Part shown: piece by piece, positions 12,443 through 42,985 of the stretch
How positions within the stretch are numbered: the stretch's first letter is position 1
Layout: every line of letters begins with the position of its first letter
Sequence record: NZ_CP136123.1
Reading direction: 5' to 3' (one strand)
Source: a plasmid
Length of the DNA stretch: 47,304 bases
Program-made: the position numbers and the translations under genes
The notes under the pieces: generated by a model
Database searches by the model: none
What the model saw: only the letters and a program-made list of their open reading frames with translations
Told to the model about the DNA's origin: nothing

Positions 12443-14490
12443 ACACAATCGAAGTTTTAGAGAAATTTCAGTCAGTTTTACACACTGCGAGTTGGGTAAG
12501 CGATGGCTTACGCTGGATAGGCTGGCAAATCATTAAAATGATGGCAAACGCGGCGGATGGATTAACTAGCATGTACAGTCAAGCGTTTAAACTCATCGAC
12601 TTTTGGAACTCAAAGGACGTCACTGGCTTTGTGGCTACCTATCAACCAGTTTTTTGGGTTTTAGGAACACTAGGAATTGCCTGGGCTGGATTAATGATGA
12701 TTCATCGAGCCAAAAGCGACTTACAGCAAAAGTTTAACAATCTTATTGTGGCTCTTCTCATTTTTATTGGGATTGGTACGCTAACTTCAACATTATCGGG
12801 CCTTGTCGTTGCGGGAGTTGGATCATCGTTAAAAAATTCCCCGCCAGCAGTTTCCATTGTTTCTAACAACATGACGGACTTGGTGCTGGTTGATAAAGCT
12901 GGTTGGAAAACTCTGAAGCCGAATCCCAGCACCAGCATGAAAACAATCAATGACATCAACTATTTAGATATAAATGAAACCATGGATTCTGGCGGATGGT
13001 GGCACATTGGCTCCAAACTCTCGAAAACCGGAAATGATGTTATGGATAACCAGTTGGTCATGACCAAGGATGGTATGTACGACTTGCGTAACATGCATGG
13101 TTTTTTTCATGACACCACGTACTATCGCTACTCGTTCCACCCATTCTTGATAGCCTTTGAATTAGGGGCGTACCTAATTGCCATTGTGTTAGTCATCATC
13201 AAAGTCTTCCTATCTTGTATGGAGATAGGCTTTACAACAATGTTAGCGCAAGGTATGGCTTTATCGGATATTGACTCCGGGAAACGTAACTTAGCTTTAA
13301 TCCAAAAGTTACGTGATACCTTCATTGTGCTGTTTTTAACCTCCGTGATGTTGCAGCTATTTACGCTTTGGACGAACGCACTTTCCAATCCAGCAAATCA
13401 ACAAAGTCCATTTGCACAGTGCTTAGGAATTATCGCCGGTGCTATGTTTTTGATTAATGGGCCAAACATTGTGATGAGTCTTTTTGGTATGGATGCCGGC
13501 GCGCGTGGTATTGGGGCAACCCTTGTTGGTGGTGCGATGGGACTCCGTGCTATTGGTGGCCTGGGTCGTGGTATGGCACACGGTGTCAACAATGCGGCAC
13601 ACGCAACGGCGCATGGCGCTACTCGTGCGGCGGGATATGGTGCTGGTTTTGCAAATGCGTTTAGGAGCAATAAGAGTAATCGTTCTAGCGGTAGTAAACC
13701 ATCCATTGATGGCATTGGCGCAGAAGCAGCCAAACAAGACGCAGCGACTCCTGATCTGGAAACACCAGCGACAACAGATCCAAAGCTTGGCAAACAAAGT
13801 GGCACAGACGCTAATCCAACCTCATCGAGCGTTGCTGGGCCAGACATGGCATCGTTGAGCGGTACAGAGGCAGCCAGTGAGGCACCAGCGGCCAATGGGC
13901 CGGATATGGCTTCACTAAGTGGCACTGAGCCGGCAAGTGAGATGCCGGCAGCAGCTGGGCCAGACATGGCTTCGTTGAGTGGCACAGAACCAGCCAGTGA
14001 GGCACCAGCAGCAGCTGGGCCAGACATGGCTTCACTGAGTGGTAGTGAACCAATGCAAGGAGATCAAGGCGAGCTTTCAAAACCTAAAACAGCACAACGT
14101 ACGATGGGGCAACCGGCTCCAAAAGGATCAAACTTTGCGACTGGGACTAACACCCGGGGCCAATCAGCGACCAGCAACGTTGGTAGTCAGGCGGGAAACC
14201 GAGCATCAATAGGGAATACTAGTCCAGATAGTGGTACGCAAGTAGAATCTGGAACGCAAGCCGTTGATACTGGCTCAGCGCCACAGCAGATTCCGGCTGA
14301 GACACGGACGCTAGGTCAAATGTGGGGCGGCAGAGTCGTTCCGGCACTTGCCAAGCATTCGCAAACCGTTCGGTTGGCACAGCGTTCCTATAATCGCGGT
14401 GCTGCCATTCCAAGCAATACACGCAAAGTAATCCAAAGTGCAAAGAACTCATATCAAAATCATAATGAACAGCCAACCTTTAGGAGGTGA
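12439..14490 (+). CDS. VirB6/TrsL-like polytopic T4SS membrane protein with a low-complexity Ala/Gly/Ser/Pro-rich C-terminal domain
   Basis: More than 6 TM helices in the first 380 aa; TTG start overlapping the coupling-protein stop; C-terminal repeats GPDMASLSGTE(P/A)ASE(A/M)PAAA. Confidence 0.6.
   Translation: MNTIEVLEKFQSVLHTASWVSDGLRWIGWQIIKMMANAADGLTSMYSQAFKLIDFWNSKDVTGFVATYQPVFWVLGTLGIAWAGLMMIHRAKSDLQQKFNNLIVALLIFIGIGTLTSTLSGLVVAGVGSSLKNSPPAVSIVSNNMTDLVLVDKAGWKTLKPNPSTSMKTINDINYLDINETMDSGGWWHIGSKLSKTGNDVMDNQLVMTKDGMYDLRNMHGFFHDTTYYRYSFHPFLIAFELGAYLIAIVLVIIKVFLSCMEIGFTTMLAQGMALSDIDSGKRNLALIQKLRDTFIVLFLTSVMLQLFTLWTNALSNPANQQSPFAQCLGIIAGAMFLINGPNIVMSLFGMDAGARGIGATLVGGAMGLRAIGGLGRGMAHGVNNAAHATAHGATRAAGYGAGFANAFRSNKSNRSSGSKPSIDGIGAEAAKQDAATPDLETPATTDPKLGKQSGTDANPTSSSVAGPDMASLSGTEAASEAPAANGPDMASLSGTEPASEMPAAAGPDMASLSGTEPASEAPAAAGPDMASLSGSEPMQGDQGELSKPKTAQRTMGQPAPKGSNFATGTNTRGQSATSNVGSQAGNRASIGNTSPDSGTQVESGTQAVDTGSAPQQIPAETRTLGQMWGGRVVPALAKHSQTVRLAQRSYNRGAAIPSNTRKVIQSAKNSYQNHNEQPTFRR
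13835..14060 (+). repeat. Four tandem 60-bp repeats in the VirB6-like gene (20-aa protein repeats)
   Basis: gggccagacatggcttc(a/g)ttgagtggcac(a/t)ga(a/g)cc(a/g)gccagtgag(g/a)(c/t)(a/g)cc(a/g)gcagcagct repeated with exact 60-bp period. Confidence 0.7.
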
Positions 14491-21297: not shown

Positions 21298-21735
21298 TTG
21301 CGAACCAGGAAGACATTTTTTGTTGACTCAAGCGATGATGCGTTAGCCTCAGATGAAGAGCTAAAAACTTATATGGCGGCTCATCAAATTGAGACCCTTA
21401 GTGCAGCGATTAAGTCACTGTTGGATGATGAGCACCGGCTTAATAATCAACTTGACCAAGCTAACGAACGTGCCTCTAACGTCAGCGAGAGTGTTCAGAA
21501 CGCACTTGCACCGCTTGAGAAAAAGATTAACTTTATCGACCGTAACTTACTGGTCTTGTTGAAACTGTTTGACGGTGTTGTCGTTCAAAACGGCTGGGAC
21601 AATTTGCCCATTCCCGATGACACAATGAAGCCAACAACGGTTGCTCGTAGGATTGTCAGTGACCAGATTAAGACCGAGTACATTCGTCACCAAACGATTC
21701 AAGTACACCATCAAGGTAGTGGTGCTGATGCCTAG
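21298..21735 (+). CDS. Coiled-coil protein (145 aa), possible relaxase accessory factor
   Basis: TTG start with TTAGGAGGG RBS; helical/coiled-coil composition; stop overlaps the relaxase start. Confidence 0.4.
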   Translation: MRTRKTFFVDSSDDALASDEELKTYMAAHQIETLSAAIKSLLDDEHRLNNQLDQANERASNVSESVQNALAPLEKKINFIDRNLLVLLKLFDGVVVQNGWDNLPIPDDTMKPTTVARRIVSDQIKTEYIRHQTIQVHHQGSGADA

Positions 21736-22422
21736 TCGAGTATCACCGGGCATTGTCAATGTGACCGATTTTGTCGCAGCCCATGCCAAAAAGTTTGGCA
21801 GCTACATCAATTACATTGATCGAGACGAGGCAATTCGGATTGATCACTTTGACCAACAAAACATTCTGTCAGTTGACGGCTACAACCACTACATGGAGAA
21901 TCCGAAAAAGTCTTCCGGCATCTTCACTGATCAATACGATCATCTAACACCAACACAACGCGTTGAGTTAAAGAAACAATTCACCGTGGCACAAAAGCAT
22001 CAGTCAGTCATGTGGCAGTCCGTATTCAGTTTCCGAAATGACTTTCTAGCTGAAAACAATGTCTACAATCCGAAGACCAAACAGTTGGATGAAGCCAAGT
22101 TGCGGGACGCTACCCGGGTCGCCATGAACGACTTCACCGGCAAAATGGGTATGACACATTCCGCTATTTGGTCTGCTGCAATTCACCGCAACACAGACAA
22201 CATTCATATTCATGTTGCCATTGTGGAGCCACAACCTACCCGTGAATGGAAACGAGTTACCGTCGAAGGTAAGCACGGTGAGACCTATCAGGAATGGCAG
22301 CGCAAAGGTTATGTTCCTAAGAAAATATTGAACCATTTCAAAGCTGCCTTTGCTAACGAAATGGTTGATCGCGATCGTTCACTTGCACGGATTAGTGACC
22401 TCATTCGTCAACGACTACAACC
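21728..22422 (+). pseudogene. MOBQ-like conjugative relaxase, N-terminal ~230 aa only; 3' end replaced by an IS3-family element
   Basis: Histidine-triad motif HRNTDNIHIHVAIVEP; N-terminal VAAHAKKFGSYINYIDRDEA (tyrosine region); reading frame runs into the IS left end at 22423; full MOBQ relaxases are 400-700 aa. Confidence 0.6.
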
Positions 22423-23679
22423 GGGTCTGTACTAGAATTTCGGACAGAAACATAAGAGAATTGATTTATCCGAAAGGAGTCCTCAAAATGACCTATTCAC
22501 GCAATCGCTACGACCAAGATTTTAAGAAAAATGCGGTACGTTTGAGTTTTAACTCTTCCAAACCAGTTAAAATCATTGCCTCCGAACTTGGTGTTCCTGA
22601 AAGTGCCCTGTATCGTTGGCGGAAGCTATATACCGAAGATGGAAAGCAAACGCCGTTTGCTTCTTTAGAAGCTGAGAACCGTGCCTTAAAACGTGAAAAT
22701 GCCGAATTAGCATTGGAGCGTGATATGTTAAAAAAAGCCGCCGCCTACTTTGCCAGTCTCCAGAAGTAACCCCCAGCGATAAGTATGCTTTTATGTTGAG
22801 GGAAACCTCTGTTTCTGTGGTAAGGTGGGCGCGTTTGTTAGACGTATCAACGAGTGGTTATTATGCTTGGCGGAGAGCTTTGCCAAAGCGAAACGCCAAA
22901 GAAAGGCAATATCGTCAACGAATCAAACACTTTTTTGATCAAGGACAGGGCACTTACGGGCCCAAACGCATCTGCGGTTTATTGCGTAAAAATGGTAATA
23001 AAGCTTCCTATCACCGAGTTGCCCGTCTGATGGCTGATGCCGGTCTGTATTCAACGCTACGTTGTCGTCATCCGAAGAGTTTGACCGATAGCCGCCTTGC
23101 TCGTCAAGGTGATTATCCCAATCTAGTGAAACACCAATCTTTTAAGCCGTTTGAAGCCTTATCAAGTGACATTACACAGACGACAACATCAGAAGGAAAA
23201 GCTTACATTTGCCAAATAAGGGATTTGACCAGCAACCTAGTGTTAGCTCATCAAATATCCAATCATATGGACACGGATTTAGTCTTAGCGACACTTAAAC
23301 AAGCCCACCAAAGGTGGGCTTTGCCAGAAACGTGTATTTTTCATAGTGACCGTGGTAGCCAATACACGGCCAAAGCAGTGACAAAGTTGGTCAACCAATA
23401 TCATTGGCAACGTAGCTTCTCAGCATTGGGAAAACCGGGTGATAACGCTTGGAGCGAAAGCTTCTTTGCCATCATGAAGAAAGAGCTCATTTATCAGATA
23501 CAATTTAAAGATATCAATGATCTGAGAGCGCAAGTCTTCGCTTACATCGAGACCTTTTACAACCGCGTAAGGGTACAAGCACGCTTAGACTATCTTGCAC
23601 CAGTAGCATGGCTTTCCTTGTATGACCAAGCTTCACAAAAAGTCGCTTAGCAAACTGTCCGAAAAAGTGTTGACTTCCC
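22423..23679 (+). mobile_element. IS3-family insertion sequence, copy 1 (1257 bp; orfA 22488-22769 and orfB 22793-23650; A7G slippery site)
   Basis: Identical to copy 2 at 37536-38792; imperfect 25-bp terminal inverted repeats GGGTCTGTACTAGAATTTCGGACAG / CTGTCCGAAAAAGTGTTGACTTCCC; orfA with HTH, orfB with DDE integrase (HSDRGSQY); TTAAAAAAAG -1 frameshift site at ~22728; no flanking target duplication. Confidence 0.85.
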
Positions 23680-23804: not shown

Positions 23805-23846
23805 GATTAAAAATAGTCGAAAGTCCATTATAGTCATGCTATAATG
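23805..23846 (+). promoter_or_regulatory. Candidate promoter with extended -10 (TGcTATAAT) for a ~125-nt convergent small RNA (putative RNA antitoxin)
   Basis: TATAAT at 23840-23845 preceded by TG; the transcript would end at the 23934-23976 terminator and overlap the 3' end of the antisense toxin ORF. Confidence 0.35.
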
Positions 23847-23933
23847 TAGACAGAAAAAGGAAGCCCCGCTAGAACAGGACTTCCCGTGCAAGCCGCTTCA
23901 AAGTCGGTGGCCTAGATTACAAAACTACATTGT

Positions 23934-23976
23934 CGCCCTGCAACCGACAAAAGTTACGCAGGGCGGCTTTTTTATT
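23934..23976 (+). terminator. Rho-independent terminator shared by the convergent small RNA and toxin gene (CGCCCTGC-loop-GCAGGGCG-GCTTTTTT)
   Basis: 8-bp GC stem plus T6; the toxin stop codon lies inside the T-tract region. Confidence 0.55.
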
Positions 23977-24061
23977 TGTGGTGCTTGTCGATATAGCTGA
24001 GTAGCGCGATTAAAAACGTGCCAAACAGCAACATCAACGAGAGTGTCTGGAAGACGCTCAT
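23972..24061 (-). CDS. 29-aa hydrophobic peptide, Fst/Ldr/Lpt-like type I toxin candidate
   Basis: MSVFQTLSLMLLFGTFLIALLSYIDKHHK: one TM helix plus a charged tail; AGGAAGG RBS upstream; below the ORF-track cutoff (overlaps the longer, implausible 23925-24110 ORF). Confidence 0.45.
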   Translation of the reverse strand: MSVFQTLSLMLLFGTFLIALLSYIDKHHK

Positions 24062-24527
24062 TGACTGTGAAACCTTCCTGAAGATTATTCCATGTTCCCA
24101 TGGGCCTCACCTCACAAGGGAAAAGACAGCCACCGCCCTTAAAACTTCTTGCTCAATCCATTATACAGGGAAATTAAAAATCAACCAAGAGCAATAAAAC
24201 CGCTCTTGACAGCAAAGGAAAGCTACAACACTAGCAAGGTCAGCAAGCAAGGCTAATAATACTGCTGCAATGGGAAATAACAAGCGTCCAGTAGGGCGGT
24301 CCAAGAGCGGGCGCAAACCCTACCAGACAGTACGATTATAAAAGTAAAGAAGGTCATAAAATCAGCTACTAGAGGGAAAACTGTGGAAAAAGACAAATAA
24401 GATGGTGAAATGATGACTATAAAGTCAAGTCAGATAAATAGGTAGTTGAGCATATAACTTGCTTTTGACGATTTACTTACTTATAATAAGTGCAGTAACA
24501 AATGACTAGTAAAAGGCGGGTAAAACA

Positions 24528-25877
24528 ATGGATAAATTTAAAAATATTATTATTGGATTTGGTAAGGCGGGTAAGACATTAGCTAAGTACTTGGCGCAGC
24601 ATGATGAGACCGTGCTTCTGATCGAACGGTCAAAACAAATGTATGGAGGAACTTGCATCAATGTTGGCTGCCTACCATCTAAAAATTTAATTTTTAATGG
24701 CCAACGTGGCGTGGACTTCACTACAGCAGTTAATAAGCGTGGTGAGATGACTAGACAGTTGCGAAACAAAAACTATCACATGGTGGCTGATGAGCCACTA
24801 GCAACGGTTTGGGATGGGTCAGCCCGTTTTATCGACAATTATGTTTTGGCAGTCGTAATGAGTGATGGAACAACTAAGAAGGTGAGAGGTGAACGCATCT
24901 TCATTAATACTGGAGCGGTTCCAAATTGGCCATCAATCCCAGGGTTAGAATTCGGTCAGCGGATTTTTACGTCTAAAGAAGCTATGGAATTGGAGAAACA
25001 ACCGAAACGACTAGCAATTATTGGTGGCGGTTATATTGGCCTTGAATTTGCTGGAATGTTTAATTCCTTTGGTACGCATGTAACGATTTTCGACCAACAT
25101 ACCAGATTGTTAGAGCGCGAAGATCCTGATATTGCGACCGAGGTCGTAGCAGATCTGACTGACGCAGGGATCGAGATTAAACCGGAGACTCAACTAACTC
25201 AAGTAAAAGATAATGGTGAGAAGGTTACATTATATTATCAACAAGGTGATCAAAGTAACACTGCGGAATTTGATGCGGTATTAGTTGCAGTCGGTCGGCG
25301 GCCTAATATAAATAGTTTAGGGCTAGAAAATACCGATATTGCTTTAACCAGTCGTGGTGCTATTCAGGTCGATGATCATTTAAGGACCACAGTACAAAAC
25401 ATTTGGGCTTTGGGCGACGTTAATGGCGGTCCTATGTTCACTTATGTCTCATTGGATGATTTTCGTATTATTGTAGATCAATTGTTTGATAAGGGGGATC
25501 GCTCAACGGCCGATCGAATGGTGATACCGACTGCTTCGTTCCTAAATCCACCACTGGCTAACGTCGGCTTAAATGAACGTCAAGCTAAGAGTGCAGGTTA
25601 TGATTTACAAACCTTCAAGCTATCAGTCAAGGCGATTCCAAAGGCCCGTGTCTTGGAGGATCAACGCGGGCTTTATAAGGTAACCGTTGATCAAAAAACA
25701 CACCTTATTTTAGGGGCAACATTGTATGCCGCTGAGGCTCATGAAACCATCAATCTAATTGCATTGGCAATGAAGGCCAAATTACCTTACGAAAGATTAC
25801 GCGACATGATCTATACTCATCCAACAATGTCTGAAGCCTTGAATGATCTTTTTAAGACCCCGGTTGTGAAAAGCTAA
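24528..25877 (+). CDS. Class I pyridine nucleotide-disulfide oxidoreductase, glutathione-reductase family
   Basis: FAD GxGxxG (GFGKAGK); redox-active GGTCINVGCLPSK; NAD site IIGGGYIGLEFA; C-terminal HPT dimerisation/active-site motif; 449 aa. Confidence 0.8.
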   Translation: MDKFKNIIIGFGKAGKTLAKYLAQHDETVLLIERSKQMYGGTCINVGCLPSKNLIFNGQRGVDFTTAVNKRGEMTRQLRNKNYHMVADEPLATVWDGSARFIDNYVLAVVMSDGTTKKVRGERIFINTGAVPNWPSIPGLEFGQRIFTSKEAMELEKQPKRLAIIGGGYIGLEFAGMFNSFGTHVTIFDQHTRLLEREDPDIATEVVADLTDAGIEIKPETQLTQVKDNGEKVTLYYQQGDQSNTAEFDAVLVAVGRRPNINSLGLENTDIALTSRGAIQVDDHLRTTVQNIWALGDVNGGPMFTYVSLDDFRIIVDQLFDKGDRSTADRMVIPTASFLNPPLANVGLNERQAKSAGYDLQTFKLSVKAIPKARVLEDQRGLYKVTVDQKTHLILGATLYAAEAHETINLIALAMKAKLPYERLRDMIYTHPTMSEALNDLFKTPVVKS

Positions 25878-26332: not shown

Positions 26333-26399
26333 TTTGAACCCAGGGATCTGAGATACCATCAATGGTTAAGATTCAACCCGGTTCGTTGTGGAGTGCTTA

Positions 26400-27256
26400 G
26401 AACCTGTCTAGTATCTGCTGAATCTGGTAGAATTGTGGAAAACCGACTGAGGCGTTTGTCATGCCAGATTATCCAAGCAATATTTCTCGAGCGCAATTTG
26501 CGTTAATACAACCTGATTTAGAAAACTTCCGCAAGCATACAAGACCGCGTCGTTATGATCTTTATGACGTATTCAATGCCATCCTTTACTCGCTTACTAC
26601 AGGGTGTCAATGGCGTGAATTACCGCACGATTTCCCGGAATGGCACACTGTCTACCGCTATTACGATATGTGGCGAGATAAACCAGACCCGACAGCTGAT
26701 TCGCTATTAGAAAGGCTTTTAAAAAAACTGTTGCTTCCTATCGCTTTGCACAGGGCCGATCGGCCCGAACGTCGTTTGTGATTGTTGATGCTCAAAGTGT
26801 TAAAACCACTGATTTAACGAAAAATAGTGGCTAAGATGGCGGCAAAAAGATTTCAGGGATTAAGCGTCATATGGCGGTTGATATTAATGGTTTACCACAA
26901 GCCATTCTCGTGACACGAGCTAATGTATCAGATCGTTCAGGTGCATTGGCTATGTTTAGTTTGGCTAGCCAAAATTTAGAGCTGGTTCAGCATGTCATGG
27001 TTGATGGTGGCTACACTGGCAATGACTTTGCGGATCAGGTGAAGCTCATTTTGAATGCTAAGACGACGGTAGCTAAACGCAACGAGTTGCATACGTTCAC
27101 GGTGTTACCGCAACGATGGATCATTGAACGTTCATGGAGTTGGCTAGACAAATGTCGGCGACTTTGGAAAAACTGTGAACACGCCCTTAACAGCAGTCTT
27201 CAAATGGTTGTATTGGCCTTCTTGAACATAGTTCTTAAAAGATGCTAGACAGGTTC
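26400..27256 (+). mobile_element. IS5-family (IS427-group-like) element, copy A, 857 bp; two-ORF transposase (26461-26781 and 26871-27248) with a premature stop in the second part
   Basis: Terminal inverted repeats GAACCTGTCTAGTATCTGCTG / ...CTAGACAGGTTC; ~98% identical to copy B (35306-36162), but TAA replaces TAC (Tyr) at ~26834; no target duplication (flanks TAG vs TCA). Confidence 0.8.
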
Positions 27257-27257
27257 T

Positions 27258-27567
27258 CAACAAACGCCACAGCTTGACCAGTGGCATGATCAATGCCAAA
27301 GTTTCGCGCAGCACCGATGCCACGATGGTCATTAAAACCGGTCGCGTGAAAATTAGGGATACCTTTAACAAAATCAGCCACTGTCTGAGCGGTACCATCA
27401 GTAGAGGCATCGTCGATGAGCCAAAGTTCAAAATCAATTGTTTGTTGCTGGATACTTTTTAATGTCTCAGGCAGATAATGACCTAAATTGTAAGTTGGCA
27501 CAACGATGGTTAAATCTAAGTTCGACGTAATTGCCTCCTTGAAGCTCGTTTTGATCATTATCGTCAA
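27258..27567 (-). pseudogene. Family-2 glycosyltransferase, N-terminal ~100 aa; C-terminus removed by IS5-like copy A
   Basis: VVPTYN...IDDASTDGT GT2 signature; ORF reads straight into the IS right end. Confidence 0.65.
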
Positions 27568-35109: not shown

Positions 35110-35305
35110 CTAGGCAATCAGCTGGTAGACGCGTGTGAACATATTGGCCTGATTGGAGAAGCCATAACAAGCACGTTTGAGCTCCTTGATCTTACGGTTG
35201 ATGCCCTCTATCGGTCCGTTAGAGTAGGACGATTTGGCGGCGTTAATTACTCCATTAAGATTCTTTCGTAGGGTATGCATGGCCGTATCTAGGGGCGTGC
35301 CGTAA
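35110..35305 (-). pseudogene. C-terminal ~65 aa of an ISL3-family transposase (remnant)
   Basis: SNGPIEGINRKIKELKRACYGFSNQANMFTRVYQLIA is the ISL3 tnp C-terminal signature; an upstream in-frame stop appears immediately. Confidence 0.6.
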
Positions 35306-36162
35306 GAACCTGTCTAGTATCTTTTAAGAACTATCTTCAGGAAGGCCAATACCACCATTTGAAGACTGCTGTTAAGGGCGCGTTCACAGTTTTTCCAAAG
35401 TCGCCGACATTTGTCTAGCCAACTCCATGAACGTTCAATGATCCATCGTTGCGGTAACACCGTGAACGTATGCAACTCGTTGCGTTTAGCTACCGTCGTC
35501 TTAGCATTCAAAATGAGCTTCACCTGATCCGCAAAGTCATTGCCAGTGTAGCCACCATCAACCATGACATGCTGAACCAGCTCTAAATTTTGGCTAGCCA
35601 AACTAAACATAGCCAATGCACCTGAACGATCTGATACATTAGCTCGTGTCACGAGAATGGCTTGTGGTAAACCATTAATATCAACCGCCATATGACGCTT
35701 AATCCCTGAAATCTTTTTGCCGCCATCGTAGCCACTATTTTTCGTTAAATCAGTGGTTTTAACACTTTGAGCATCAACAATCACAAACGACGTTCGGGCC
35801 GATCGGCCCTGTGCAAAGCGATAGGAAGCAACAGTTTTTTTAAAAGCCTTTCTAATAGCGAATCAGCTGTCGGGTCTGGTTTATCTCGCCACATATCGTA
35901 ATAGCGGTAGACAGTGTGCCATTCCGGGAAATCGTGCGGTAATTCACGCCATTGACACCCTGTAGTAAGCGAGTAAAGGATGGCATTGAATACGTCATAA
36001 AGATCATAACGACGCGGTCTTGTATGCTTGCGGAAGTTTTCTAAATCAGGTTGTATTAACGCAAATTGCGCTCGAGAAATATTGCTTGGATAATCTGGCA
36101 TGACAAACGCCTCAGTCGGTTTTCCACAATTCTACCAGATTCAGCAGATACTAGACAGGTTC
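35306..36162 (-). mobile_element. IS5-family (IS427-group-like) element, copy B, intact (ORFs 36101-35781 and 35784-35314); 3-bp TAA target duplication
   Basis: Same terminal inverted repeats as copy A; TAA directly flanks both ends (35303-35305 and 36163-36165); the second ORF lacks the nonsense codon seen in copy A. Confidence 0.8.
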
Positions 36163-36227
36163 TAAGAGGCATTTCACCATACTAACAAGAAAACCAAAAA
36201 TTCCCAGATCATTAATTTAACATATCG

Positions 36228-37535: not shown

Positions 37536-38792
37536 GGGTCTGTACTAGAATTTCGGACAGAAACATAAGAGAATTGATTTATCCGAAAGGAGTCCTCAAA
37601 ATGACCTATTCACGCAATCGCTACGACCAAGATTTTAAGAAAAATGCGGTACGTTTGAGTTTTAACTCTTCCAAACCAGTTAAAATCATTGCCTCCGAAC
37701 TTGGTGTTCCTGAAAGTGCCCTGTATCGTTGGCGGAAGCTATATACCGAAGATGGAAAGCAAACGCCGTTTGCTTCTTTAGAAGCTGAGAACCGTGCCTT
37801 AAAACGTGAAAATGCCGAATTAGCATTGGAGCGTGATATGTTAAAAAAAGCCGCCGCCTACTTTGCCAGTCTCCAGAAGTAACCCCCAGCGATAAGTATG
37901 CTTTTATGTTGAGGGAAACCTCTGTTTCTGTGGTAAGGTGGGCGCGTTTGTTAGACGTATCAACGAGTGGTTATTATGCTTGGCGGAGAGCTTTGCCAAA
38001 GCGAAACGCCAAAGAAAGGCAATATCGTCAACGAATCAAACACTTTTTTGATCAAGGACAGGGCACTTACGGGCCCAAACGCATCTGCGGTTTATTGCGT
38101 AAAAATGGTAATAAAGCTTCCTATCACCGAGTTGCCCGTCTGATGGCTGATGCCGGTCTGTATTCAACGCTACGTTGTCGTCATCCGAAGAGTTTGACCG
38201 ATAGCCGCCTTGCTCGTCAAGGTGATTATCCCAATCTAGTGAAACACCAATCTTTTAAGCCGTTTGAAGCCTTATCAAGTGACATTACACAGACGACAAC
38301 ATCAGAAGGAAAAGCTTACATTTGCCAAATAAGGGATTTGACCAGCAACCTAGTGTTAGCTCATCAAATATCCAATCATATGGACACGGATTTAGTCTTA
38401 GCGACACTTAAACAAGCCCACCAAAGGTGGGCTTTGCCAGAAACGTGTATTTTTCATAGTGACCGTGGTAGCCAATACACGGCCAAAGCAGTGACAAAGT
38501 TGGTCAACCAATATCATTGGCAACGTAGCTTCTCAGCATTGGGAAAACCGGGTGATAACGCTTGGAGCGAAAGCTTCTTTGCCATCATGAAGAAAGAGCT
38601 CATTTATCAGATACAATTTAAAGATATCAATGATCTGAGAGCGCAAGTCTTCGCTTACATCGAGACCTTTTACAACCGCGTAAGGGTACAAGCACGCTTA
38701 GACTATCTTGCACCAGTAGCATGGCTTTCCTTGTATGACCAAGCTTCACAAAAAGTCGCTTAGCAAACTGTCCGAAAAAGTGTTGACTTCCC
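37536..38792 (+). mobile_element. IS3-family insertion sequence, copy 2 (identical to copy 1; orfA 37601-37882, orfB 37906-38763)
   Basis: Sequence identity with 22423-23679 across the full 1257 bp including inverted repeats; no target duplication. Confidence 0.85.
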
Positions 38793-39196: not shown

Positions 39197-39524
39197 TTAC
39201 TTATCTGGTTGCTCAGTTAATTTCGCCAATTTTTGATGCAGCCTAATGTCATATTGCCTGGTAATTGGCATTAACACCGCGACTACCCCGCAAATGGCAG
39301 CACCGATTCCTGCAATCACAAATAGGCGTTCAATGCCAATCACATCAGCTAGGGGACCGGCAAAAATTAAGCCAATTGGTCCAGCTAGATTCAACAAAGA
39401 ATTCAAAACGCCTAGAATCCGCCCTAACTCTTCTGCTGGATAACTTTGTTGAATCATTGCCATTAAAAGCGTTGTAAAAAATGGGGTCGCAATTCCTTCA
39501 ATGATGTTTAAAGCTGCGAACCAT
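39197..39524 (-). pseudogene. C-terminal fragment of an MFS transporter, truncated by partial IS5-like copy C
   Basis: Hydrophobic C-terminal helices (LGVLNSLLNLAGPIGLIFAGPLADVIG...) with no N-terminal part; frame continues to the IS junction. Confidence 0.5.
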
Positions 39525-39895
39525 GTTCGGGCCGATCGGCCCTATGCAAAGCGATAGGAAGCAACAGTTTTTTTAAAAGCCTTTCTAATAGCGAATCAGC
39601 TGTCGGGTCTGGTTTATCTCGCCACATATCGTAATAGCGGTAGACAGTGTGCCATTCCGGGAAATCGTGCGGTAATTCACGCCATTGACACCCTGTAGTA
39701 AGCGAGTAAAGGATGGCATTGAATACGTCATAAAGATCATAACGACGCGGTCTTGTATGCTTGCGGAAGTTTTCTAAATCAGGTTGTATTAACGCAAATT
39801 GCGCTCGAGAAATATTGCTTGGATAATCTGGCATGACAAACGCCTCAGTCGGTTTTCCACAATTCTACCAGATTCAGCAGATACTAGACAGGTTC
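39525..39895 (-). mobile_element. IS5-like element copy C, 5'-portion only (371 bp; first ORF 39834-39508)
   Basis: Matches copy B from its inverted repeat through the first ORF; breaks at 39525; TTA flank at 39896-39898. Confidence 0.7.
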
Positions 39896-40180
39896 TTAAA
39901 GAGTTGCTTTCAATTGATCTAATCGCCATTGGCACCATGAAATAAAGGCTAATTCGTCAATCTTTGGAATGCCATAGGTTCTAGCATACGTTAACTTTTG
40001 AGTGGTAAGTAGTTGATCATAGGGTTTGCTAATAATACCAACCACAAGGATATCGACATTTTTGTCAATCCCGTTGACAGGTTTTGCTCCTAGAATAGTT
40101 GCTAACTGTTGTGCCTGGAAACGACGAAAAGATCGCAAACGGCCTGTAAAGAGAATTCGTTTGCCCCTTAAATCTATCAT
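39896..40180 (-). CDS. Stand-alone BRCT-domain protein (94 aa)
   Basis: GKRILFTGRLRSFRRFQAQQLATILGAKPVNGIDKNVDILVVG resembles the BRCT domain of NAD-dependent DNA ligase; start overlaps the resolvase stop. Confidence 0.5.
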   Translation of the reverse strand: MIDLRGKRILFTGRLRSFRRFQAQQLATILGAKPVNGIDKNVDILVVGIISKPYDQLLTTQKLTYARTYGIPKIDELAFISWCQWRLDQLKATL

Positions 40181-41614: not shown

Positions 41615-42985
41615 CTAGTAAGCAGTATGCTTTTTTAGCAAAGCGCTCTTAAGCTCTTCGTCTTCGGCTCTCATACCCGTCAAATTTGCTTCTGTTAAAT
41701 CCACGCCTAACAAATCTGCCCCTGCCAAATTCGCATCGGTCAGATTCGCGGCGGTCAGATTCGCATCGGTCAGATTCGCATCGGTCAAATTCGCACCGGT
41801 CAGATTCGCACCGGTCAAATTCGCACCGGTCAGATTCGCACCGGTCAAATTCGCACCGGTCAGATTCGCACCCTTCAGGTGTGCATTGGTCAAATCTGCC
41901 TCTCTCAGGTCAGTATTCATCATGTCTGCGTCTATTAAGGATGTATTATTAAAACCAGTTTTATGCATGTACGCTTTGACTAAGTTCACTCTGTCCATCC
42001 TTGCATCCATCAGGTTTGCATTTTCAAAATTTGCTCCAGTAAAATTTGATGTTCTTAGATCGGATCCGATAAAATTCGTATTCGCCAGTTTTGCATCGGT
42101 CAGATTACAGCTTGTCAACAAAGTATTATTATTGGCTTCGGCTCCGTTTAACCACGATTCCTTCATTGACGAATCACATATTTCTGCATCGTTCAATATC
42201 ACACGTCCCATGAAGGCATTATCGAAGTTCACACTGGTAATTTCTGCTCCGGTAAAGTCTACATTTGTTAGTTGTGCCTGTGAAAGCTTTATGTCGACTA
42301 AACGCGAATTTCTCAAATTTCCATTTAGCATTCGAATCCCTTTTAACGATGCACTATTTAATATAATATTTTGTAGATCTGCTGACTCAAAATTTAAATA
42401 AGGGTCAACGTGGAAGTTGAGCTCTTCTGGTATTACAAATGCAAACGTATTTGTAATACCATGATCTTTGTTGGCCACATCCTTTTCTGATATTTGTATA
42501 AGTCCATTAGCTTTAGCACTTACAACACTTGGGGATTGCTGTACTACTCGTTTAAAGTTTGTTTTAAAAGCAAGGTCGACAAGTCCTTGCATGTTTCTGT
42601 ATATTTCTTTTGCTTGGTCTGGTATTTCTTTTTTCAAATCATTACAATTTTGTATCAGTTCTATTAGTTCAGAAATTGCCGCTGCGACAATAATTGGCTG
42701 TTCACTCGCTAAATGAGTTATAGCGGTTGCCTTTCCTGCTATGATCTCTTGTTTATAATCATGCTCTTTACGTATTCTTTCTTGATTTTTGGAAAAATTT
42801 CGAGTGAATACTCCTACAAATATAGATGTTAAGACAACCGATCCAGTTTGAAATACAACATTAAACTCATTACAATTTCGTACAAGCAATAAAAGAAAAA
42901 CAAAACAAGTTGCCACTAACACGACTATATACCAGTCACCCCAAAATTTACGGAAGCGTTTATAATATTTATTTTCTGTTATCAA
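41615..42985 (-). CDS. Membrane-anchored pentapeptide-repeat protein (456 aa)
   Basis: Two N-terminal TM helices, ~150-aa helical domain, then ~45 pentapeptide repeats ending in a perfect GANLT x6 run. Confidence 0.7.
   Translation of the reverse strand: MITENKYYKRFRKFWGDWYIVVLVATCFVFLLLLVRNCNEFNVVFQTGSVVLTSIFVGVFTRNFSKNQERIRKEHDYKQEIIAGKATAITHLASEQPIIVAAAISELIELIQNCNDLKKEIPDQAKEIYRNMQGLVDLAFKTNFKRVVQQSPSVVSAKANGLIQISEKDVANKDHGITNTFAFVIPEELNFHVDPYLNFESADLQNIILNSASLKGIRMLNGNLRNSRLVDIKLSQAQLTNVDFTGAEITSVNFDNAFMGRVILNDAEICDSSMKESWLNGAEANNNTLLTSCNLTDAKLANTNFIGSDLRTSNFTGANFENANLMDARMDRVNLVKAYMHKTGFNNTSLIDADMMNTDLREADLTNAHLKGANLTGANLTGANLTGANLTGANLTGANLTDANLTDANLTAANLTDANLAGADLLGVDLTEANLTGMRAEDEELKSALLKKHTAY
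41730..41879. repeat. About ten near-perfect tandem 15-bp repeats (ttcgcaccggtcaRa) within the pentapeptide-repeat gene
   Basis: Visible period-15 array encoding (A/D)NLTG x n; the alternative frame on the opposite strand gives the HRSDS-repeat artefact ORF 41686-41952. Confidence 0.8.

Follow-up and report, generated by a model that had tools for sequence, protein, structure and literature searches.

A 29-amino-acid Hol_Tox peptide and a RatA-like RNA: a probable TxpA/RatA-class type I toxin–antitoxin module on a lac plasmid

To which class of toxin–antitoxin system should a 29-amino-acid (29-aa) hydrophobic peptide be assigned when its gene faces a small convergent RNA on a lactobacillus-type plasmid? 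The locus lies on a plasmid sequence of 47,304 nucleotides (nt; record NZ_CP136123.1), hereafter the window, that resembles the lac plasmids of Lacticaseibacillus paracasei and rhamnosus with their MobP2 relaxase and type IV secretion genes. A preliminary description, made from the sequence, had taken it for an unannotated Fst/Lpt-like type I toxin facing a small RNA with which it shares a terminator. Our analysis bears out the type I arrangement of a one-helix toxin with a convergent RNA of ~125 nt but not the family, the peptide belonging to Hol_Tox and having no Fst match. Sequence comparisons indicate that the locus is very probably one of the type I toxin–antitoxin modules of the TxpA/RatA–BsrG/SR4 class, like the rli28 mRNA and RatA RNA of Listeria plasmids, and its proper label is a TxpA/RatA-class (Hol_Tox plus RatA) type I module, not Fst/Lpt. 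The analysis established that both components have homologues, how the promoters and terminators are laid out, which parts are conserved and which covarying helices are predicted; the account begins with the toxin gene:

23972..24061, minus strand: toxin gene, a 29-aa open reading frame (ORF), MSVFQTLSLMLLFGTFLIALLSYIDKHHK, stop codon counted in, from the ORF list

The encoded peptide consists of a 21-residue hydrophobic helix (mean Kyte-Doolittle value 1.87 over residues 3-23) followed by a DKHHK tail, and its ribosome-binding site (RBS), GGAAGG at 24078..24073, stands 11 nt 5' of the ATG, gene and RBS both being as first described. When scanned against Pfam at E<=10, the peptide has Hol_Tox (PF16935) as its sole match, at 50.3 bits (E=2.2e-13, cutoff 23.3), with no match to Fst_toxin. 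In a control scan, Fst matched Fst_toxin whereas TxpA (31 bits, its N-terminal 17 residues alone aligning) and BsrG (34 bits) matched Hol_Tox above its cutoff, identifying Hol_Tox as the TxpA/BsrG family, distinct from Fst. The best match in NCBIfam is the competence inhibitor ComI (NF052249), at 28.7 bits against an equivalog cutoff of 55, and a further sub-cutoff match is to the type I toxin PepG1; both are relatives, and ComI is not an equivalog. Close homologues of the gene differ almost solely by synonymous changes, and divergent variants retain both the frame and its hydrophobic character. No second Hol_Tox gene and no Lpt copy was found in the window.

A module of the Fst/Lpt type (par of pAD1), with a shared bidirectional terminator and a block to translation through 5' direct repeats, would have the same superficial build of 29 amino acids, one helix, a charged tail and convergent RNAs, and Lpt does occur on Lacticaseibacillus plasmids. 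The Lpt toxins, linked to Fst by HHpred, have a core, AIIAPLLVGVFLLL, in which Pro11 was mutated by the authors who described them (Folli et al. 2017; Maggi et al. 2019, 2024). Our comparison with Lpt was made through this published core motif and Pro11 only, and in both respects the peptide differs: it contains no proline, and no Lpt-like core was found in it or in any of the six frames of the window. The Hol_Tox match of 50 bits, with no Fst_toxin match though that model was in the library, points the same way. Fst/Lpt membership was therefore rejected on the Pfam result, the missing core motif and the layout of the RNAs described below, and the probability that remains to it is very small.

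The locus is not unannotated, as had been supposed, since RefSeq already labels the coding sequence (CDS) ‘putative holin-like toxin’ (e.g. WP_021353390.1), and ‘Putative Holin-like Toxin’ is likewise the Pfam name of Hol_Tox. Taken at face value these names would make the peptide a true holin, or a helper in lysis or secretion, rather than the toxin of a toxin–antitoxin pair, and the homologues found in Paenibacillus, Brevibacillus and SPbeta-like phages would suit such a role. The characterised relatives TxpA and BsrG are, however, type I toxins (PMC6562991), no endolysin or bacteriocin gene is adjacent to the gene here or in the 13 loci inspected, and a dedicated convergent antisense RNA is conserved with it. 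We consider a holin function extremely improbable.

The convergent RNA is read from the plus strand, where the following features were recognised:

23817..23845, plus strand: antitoxin promoter, with a -35-like TCGAAA (23817-23822), a 17-nt spacer and an extended -10, TGcTATAAT (23837-23845)
23851..23976, plus strand: predicted RatA-type antitoxin RNA of ~125 nt, both ends estimated
23859-23884, plus strand: antitoxin 5' hairpin, from the fold
~23891-23911, plus strand: second antitoxin hairpin (HP2), from the fold, conserved
23932-23967, plus strand: hairpin of the antitoxin terminator, GTCGCCCTGC...GCAGGGCGGC, followed by the T-run TTTTTTATTT at 23968-23977

The extended -10 of the preliminary description was recovered both by direct reading and by a promoter scan, in which 10 of 12 promoter positions match in addition to the TG extension. 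The -10 itself, CATGCTATAAT, is invariant in all 13 aligned loci (13/13); the -35 region is not conserved, and only 2% of columns are invariant in the 45 nt upstream of CATGCTATAAT. At the other end, the hairpin terminator does reach the toxin gene's 3' end, its T-run TTTTTTATTT spanning the complement of the stop codon, and its stem covaries (RNAalifold columns 233/258 and 234/257). The Rfam model for RatA (RF01776) matches 23842-23931 on the plus strand with 55.7 bits, its gathering score being 49 (E=2e-5 over the 47-kb window), and is the sole Rfam match at gathering level in the window. RatA matches of 53-63 bits were also obtained in nine related loci, every one convergent to the toxin gene. 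On this evidence from sequence and model matching, the antitoxin RNA is homologous to RatA. The Hol_Tox match, the RatA match and the invariance of CATGCTATAAT beside unconserved upstream sequence argue that the features listed are real and beyond chance.

Does this RNA act on the toxin mRNA in the manner of par and Lpt? The elements of the toxin transcript that bear on this are as follows:

24160..24188, minus strand: predicted toxin promoter, TTGGTT (24188..24183), a 17-nt spacer and TATAAT (24165..24160), read from the sequence, with the transcript start estimated near 24153
23850..24153, minus strand: predicted toxin mRNA of ~300 nt, comprising a 92-nt 5' untranslated region (UTR), the CDS and a 3' UTR fully complementary to the antitoxin RNA
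24125..24152, minus strand: 5' strand of a P1-like helix, GCAAGAAGUUUUAAGGGCGGUGGCUGUC, in the minimum-energy and centroid folds
24049..24078, minus strand: RBS-sequestering stem-loop, in which GGAAGG (24078..24073) pairs with CUUCC of codons 3-5 (24053..24049) and encloses the AUG
23888..23913, minus strand: 3' strand of the P1-like helix, exactly complementary to HP2 of the antitoxin
23850..23885, minus strand: the toxin mRNA's intrinsic terminator, with a stem of 12 pairs (23885..23858) and then TTTTTCTGTCT, complementary to the antitoxin 5' hairpin, from a terminator scan

Characteristic of par are direct repeats by which the small RNA can base-pair where translation of the toxin begins; its two RNAs also share a bidirectional terminator. 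Neither property was found here. The plus-strand hairpin at 23932-23967 is not followed by a U-tract on the minus strand, and the toxin mRNA ends instead at its own terminator, whose stem at 23885..23858 covaries (RNAalifold columns 338/349: CG 5, UA 3, GU 1, AU 1) and contains G-U pairs that on the plus strand would be C-A mismatches, as fits selection for termination of the toxin mRNA. There are thus two separate one-way terminators with their T-runs on the appropriate strands, and not the shared one originally proposed. From the predicted promoters and terminators, the two RNAs converge and would overlap at their 3' ends from ~23850 to ~23976, over ~125 nt.

The search for direct repeats between the small RNA and the 5' region of the toxin mRNA, suggested by the preliminary description as a check, likewise gave nothing above shuffled sequences: the best predicted duplex has an energy of -51.2 kcal/mol compared with -50.3 +/- 5.7 for shuffles of the small RNA, 42% of which are as good. 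Candidate repeats were rejected on this ground, the likeness between the two regions being one of similarity, not complementarity, in that 18 of 24 positions of the antitoxin at 23887-23910 (plus strand) are identical to the toxin mRNA 5' end (18/24). The explanation is that HP2 is complementary to the P1-like helix's 3' strand, so that antitoxin and mRNA 5' end have a target in the 3' UTR in common. Control of the par/Lpt type therefore fails on both its RNA features, and the small RNA matches Rfam RatA.

The TxpA/RatA-class toxin mRNA is predicted to be highly structured. Its fold (24153..23848) has an energy of -118.3 kcal/mol (z = -5.8), and none of 100 shuffles is equally stable (0/100). 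In this fold a long-distance helix resembling P1 of bsrG pairs nucleotides 2-26 of the mRNA with the 3' UTR at 23913..23888, and RNAalifold recovers it independently from an alignment of 12 loci, three of them distant. The duplex of the 5' strand with the mRNA's own 3' UTR is worth -35.1 against -20.8 +/- 3.0 for shuffles, none of 200 being as good (0/200). To look more widely, species-representative genomes were scanned with the HP2 motif, for which a few dozen chance matches are estimated in 596 Gb; among the matches listed, we kept the 60 loci (36 distinct locus types) in which the 5' strand and an ORF of Hol_Tox type also occur, correctly spaced. Between the two strands the distance is a constant 225-242 nt in these 60, among the matches listed. 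The helix's informative pair is G-C in 22/36, A-U in 9/36, G-U in 2/36 and unpaired in 3/36 locus types, again among the matches listed (Fisher p ~1e-5, ignoring phylogeny). In the aligned loci, 94.6% of cells across the 17 inner pairs are paired, compared with 37-63% when the partner is slid, and change on both sides is confined to one column. Since the segment 23888..23913 pairs with both, the antitoxin and the mRNA 5' end would compete for it.

The second predicted element, the stem-loop that sequesters the RBS, has a local fold of -7.4 kcal/mol and is kept in 9-12 of the 12 loci (RNAalifold pairs 85-90 x 109-114). Conservation is concentrated in the same parts of the locus, invariant columns (13 loci) making up 80% of HP2, 80% of the RBS-proximal leader and 43% of the CDS, and the promoter's -10 and TTGGT(T/C) are retained in most aligned loci. 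A bsrG P1-like closing helix together with a sequestered RBS is what these folds predict for the toxin mRNA.

A separate observation concerns the leader. At 24110..24090 on the minus strand lies a Shine–Dalgarno (SD)-like GAGGTG with an ATG 6 nt later, inside a small conserved hairpin, CCAUG-GGAA-CAUGG; the AUG, at 24098..24096, is ~37 nt 5' of the toxin start. The GAGGTG does not vary across the 12 aligned loci and was seen in 34 of 42 distinct locus types. This might be a functional ribosome-loading site, either a mok-like leader whose translation opens the RBS stem or a STAB-SD-type stabiliser, although we regard this as rather unlikely. Were it true, an antitoxin that displaces the 5'-3' helix would also control the GAGGUG site, a layer of regulation not described for the TxpA/BsrG class.

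The same site precedes an overlapping ORF of 61 aa (24110..23925, minus strand), the longest over the region, which could itself be the real product, whether at full length or as an ATG-started version of 57 codons; the conserved GAGGTG with its ATG 6 nt on stands before the ORF in 25/42 locus types. It has no Pfam match, however, and among homologues its length varies from 4 to 64 codons, while it is the 29-aa frame that has mostly synonymous change in close homologues. The genetic code supplies an explanation for its openness: the third codon position of the 61-aa frame is the second position of the toxin frame, which is T in hydrophobic codons, so no stops arise across the helix part and the open frame would be a by-product. 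The 61-aa ORF was rejected for these reasons (by-product of hydrophobic codons, no Pfam match, variable length), and the chance that it is the true product is as slight as that of a holin.

Upstream of the toxin gene, a terminator-like hairpin (24210..24184, minus strand; 12 pairs, then TGATTTTTAA) overlaps the toxin promoter at its -35. This hairpin is restricted to the window, pLC1 and the YW11 plasmid, and may insulate the toxin promoter from upstream read-through.

The toxin mRNA of this Hol_Tox module also has a counterpart in Rfam. The rli28 model aligns to its leader and CDS (24174..23991, minus strand), sub-threshold at 38.9 bits against a gathering score of 45, and rises above the gathering score in several lactobacillus homologues, up to 55.6 bits (loci L013 at 505-687, L007 at 564-748 and L017 at 395-571). 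A homologue on Bacillus pumilus plasmid pSHB9, MSTFQALSLMFLFGMFILALLTYIDKKK, whose peptide is 68% identical, has an RNA that matches Rfam BsrG at 113 bits. Because the rli28 model aligns to leader and coding part and attains its gathering score in lactobacillus homologues, rli28, filed as a Listeria small RNA, looks like the mRNA of a Hol_Tox-class toxin rather than a non-coding RNA. The same was suspected for rli28 on Listeria plasmids by Anast et al. (2022, PMC9484302).

How might such a module work? In B. subtilis, RatA and SR4 bind the 3' ends of their toxin mRNAs over 100-140 bp and RNase III cleaves the duplex, as reviewed by Brantl and Müller (PMC6562991). By analogy, the toxin mRNA would be closed by the helix between its 5' end and 3' UTR, with the RBS paired to codons 3-5, and in this closed form would be stable but poorly translated. 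The antitoxin of ~125 nt, transcribed from the extended -10 on the plus strand and a perfect complement of the toxin 3' UTR and last codons, would invade the 3' UTR together with the closing helix's 3' strand and displace the 5' end, as RatA and SR4 suggest. RNase III would then cut the long duplex and the toxin mRNA decay, possibly with added repression of translation. A daughter cell without the plasmid would first run out of the short-lived antitoxin and then die or stop growing, an outcome known as post-segregational killing. Transcription in the host, toxicity, a dependence on RNase III, the relative half-lives of the RNAs and plasmid stabilisation are properties that we infer.

Plasmids are where the module is chiefly found. 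Megablast places the 600-bp region in 568 plasmid records and blastn in 666, chiefly of Lactiplantibacillus, Lacticaseibacillus, Levilactobacillus and Pediococcus; the total for the module is 516-666 plasmid records, a single plasmid often having several copies, and the identical 29-aa peptide occurs on at least 276 plasmid records (tblastn) from more than ten genera. More distant relatives of the toxin are encoded on Bacillus plasmids and by phages of Bacillus, Paenibacillus and Brevibacillus, including SPbeta-like ones. Homology among the plasmids runs from ~23833 to ~24200, and the neighbours change with the plasmid (mobQ, a restriction S subunit, a ClC transporter, a Y-family polymerase, an FAD oxidoreductase, insertion sequence (IS) elements), which together suggest that a unit of ~370 bp moves as a cassette. 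We found no paper on the 29-aa peptide in the searchable literature, a search for the exact peptide string included; a survey of type I systems in Lacticaseibacillus sought Lpt homologues only.

This distribution bears on a further possibility, namely that the peptide is a Hol_Tox membrane effector whose main job is not addiction, for instance one that blocks DNA uptake as ComI does, acts in stress or persistence or triggers abortive infection, with the antisense RNA setting its level. ComI is, as noted, the best NCBIfam match, family members are found on chromosomes and prophages besides plasmids, functions beyond killing have been argued for such peptides (Fozo et al. 2010, PMC2887945), and expression of rli28 from Listeria plasmids rises strongly in biofilm and with bile (PMC9484302). 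Set against this, the ComI score is far under its cutoff, and the strong plasmid bias, the presence in multiple copies and the 370-bp mobile unit beside unrelated genes fit a selfish maintenance module. We therefore think a non-addiction role unlikely, if less so than any of the rival identities of the locus considered above.

Several points weigh against a TxpA/RatA-class maintenance module closed by a P1-like helix. Covariation in the helix, uncorrected for phylogeny, comes mainly from a single column, and its covariation score passed the shuffle control only moderately (35/500). In the window itself, position 23904 is T where the consensus is G (11 of 12 aligned homologues have G or A), so that the helix has a G-A mismatch, which costs ~7 kcal/mol; T23904, which is common to L. 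rhamnosus KF7 plasmid p1, mismatches the second hairpin of the antitoxin too. The RatA score owes part of its value to conserved DNA and not to RNA structure, because the model begins inside the -10 box. The spacing of 11 nt between RBS and AUG is long for the toxin gene. A role in post-segregational killing is a reasonable proposal that draws on plasmid location only, and for no Lactobacillaceae copy did we find transcript, toxicity or plasmid-stability evidence in the searchable literature.

How does the module sit on its own plasmid? As first described, it lies just to the right of an IS3-family element: copies of this element at 22423-23679 and 37536-38792, identical, 1257 bp long and in direct orientation, bracket ~13.9 kb. 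This exact duplication places the module inside an IS-bounded segment of ~13.9 kb, along with the lac genes and an FAD-dependent oxidoreductase gene. The bracketed segment looks like a composite transposon; no matching target-site duplications were seen at the four IS3 junctions, judged by eye. That the module serves as an addiction module for the lac segment, as had been suggested, is plausible; here it lies with the lac genes between the two IS3 copies, and in other plasmids it adjoins unrelated genes.

Some further features of the surroundings may be recorded. A 264-aa ORF (21641-22435, plus strand) runs into the left end of the first IS3 copy and appears to be cut by the insertion. It contains an HIHV motif resembling those of relaxases. 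A MobP2 relaxase is annotated in related plasmids at some point of the matching stretch, and the 264-aa ORF is a candidate counterpart. On the other side, ~470 bp from the toxin module, is the gene for the 449-aa FAD-dependent oxidoreductase, of the pyridine nucleotide-disulfide type (24528-25877, plus strand); its pairing with the module recurs in several Lacticaseibacillus plasmids and one L. plantarum plasmid, and the two seem to be co-travelling in one sub-lineage. Tandem repeats comprise twelve 15-nt units (41649-41918) and three 60-nt units (13834-14051), which may be repeats within coding sequence, and three near-identical 54-nt units (438-625), which could be iterons. Repeats at 99% identity, in inverted and direct orientation, at 26396-27268, 35294-36166 and 39519-39896 are presumably other IS copies, and these further IS-like repeats suggest that the lac region has been heavily rearranged by insertion sequences.

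The module itself is ordinary and already known, being annotated in databases on hundreds of lactobacillus plasmids, and is no discovery. It is, however, among the commonest small modules on the plasmids of food and probiotic lactobacilli, and may help to retain lac and other trait plasmids in starter strains. What the present analysis adds is modest: a clear separation from the Lpt systems studied in the same hosts and comparative evidence in favour of a closing helix like that of bsrG, which the antitoxin would have to invade.

Several characterised systems can be set beside it. Lpt/RNA II and Fst of the pAD1 par locus are, like the present module, plasmid-borne type I systems with one-helix peptides of 29-33 aa and convergent RNAs, and occur in the same hosts, but they have an Fst/Ldr peptide with a conserved proline, 5' direct-repeat control and a shared terminator, none of which is present here. 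Within the Lactobacillales, the TxpA-family toxin EF3263 of Enterococcus faecalis was toxic upon induction in E. coli, an antisense RNA of ~110 nt lies across its 3' UTR, and a count of TxpA-family genes gave four for L. casei ATCC 334 (Fozo et al. 2010, PMC2887945); EF3263, which we liken to the present toxin by description, differs in being chromosomal.

The txpA/RatA pair of the B. subtilis skin element shares with our locus the RatA model match, the same Pfam family and, as predicted here, action through the toxin 3' end, RatA itself bringing about RNase III-dependent degradation of the toxin mRNA. It differs in the size of both partners (TxpA has 59 aa and RatA 222 nt) and in its location in a chromosomal element. 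In bsrG/SR4 of the B. subtilis prophage SPbeta the resemblance extends to the RNA architecture predicted here: a Hol_Tox toxin, a 3' overlap of ~120 nt, a P1 closing helix bound by the antitoxin and a partly sequestered RBS. SR4 touches bsrG mRNA at the 3' part of its main helix P1 and in addition tightens the sequestration of its RBS (PMC6562991). BsrG, however, has 38 aa, SR4 is 180 nt long with four stem-loops and the locus is carried by a prophage, compared with 29 aa, ~125 nt with three stem-loops and a plasmid here.

Listeria plasmids, finally, provide a plasmid-borne counterpart. In L. monocytogenes pLM80, pLM7802 and pLM5446 the same two Rfam families, rli28 and RatA, are found in convergent orientation, with a small hydrophobic ORF contained in the rli28 transcript, the rli28 and RatA RNAs around this BsrH-like ORF being among the most highly expressed genes of the plasmids (Anast et al. 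2022, PMC9484302). The host belongs to another family, the rli28 match here (38.9 bits) is below the gathering score of 45, and the Listeria peptide, described as BsrH-like with 38% identity, is set beside our toxin by description.

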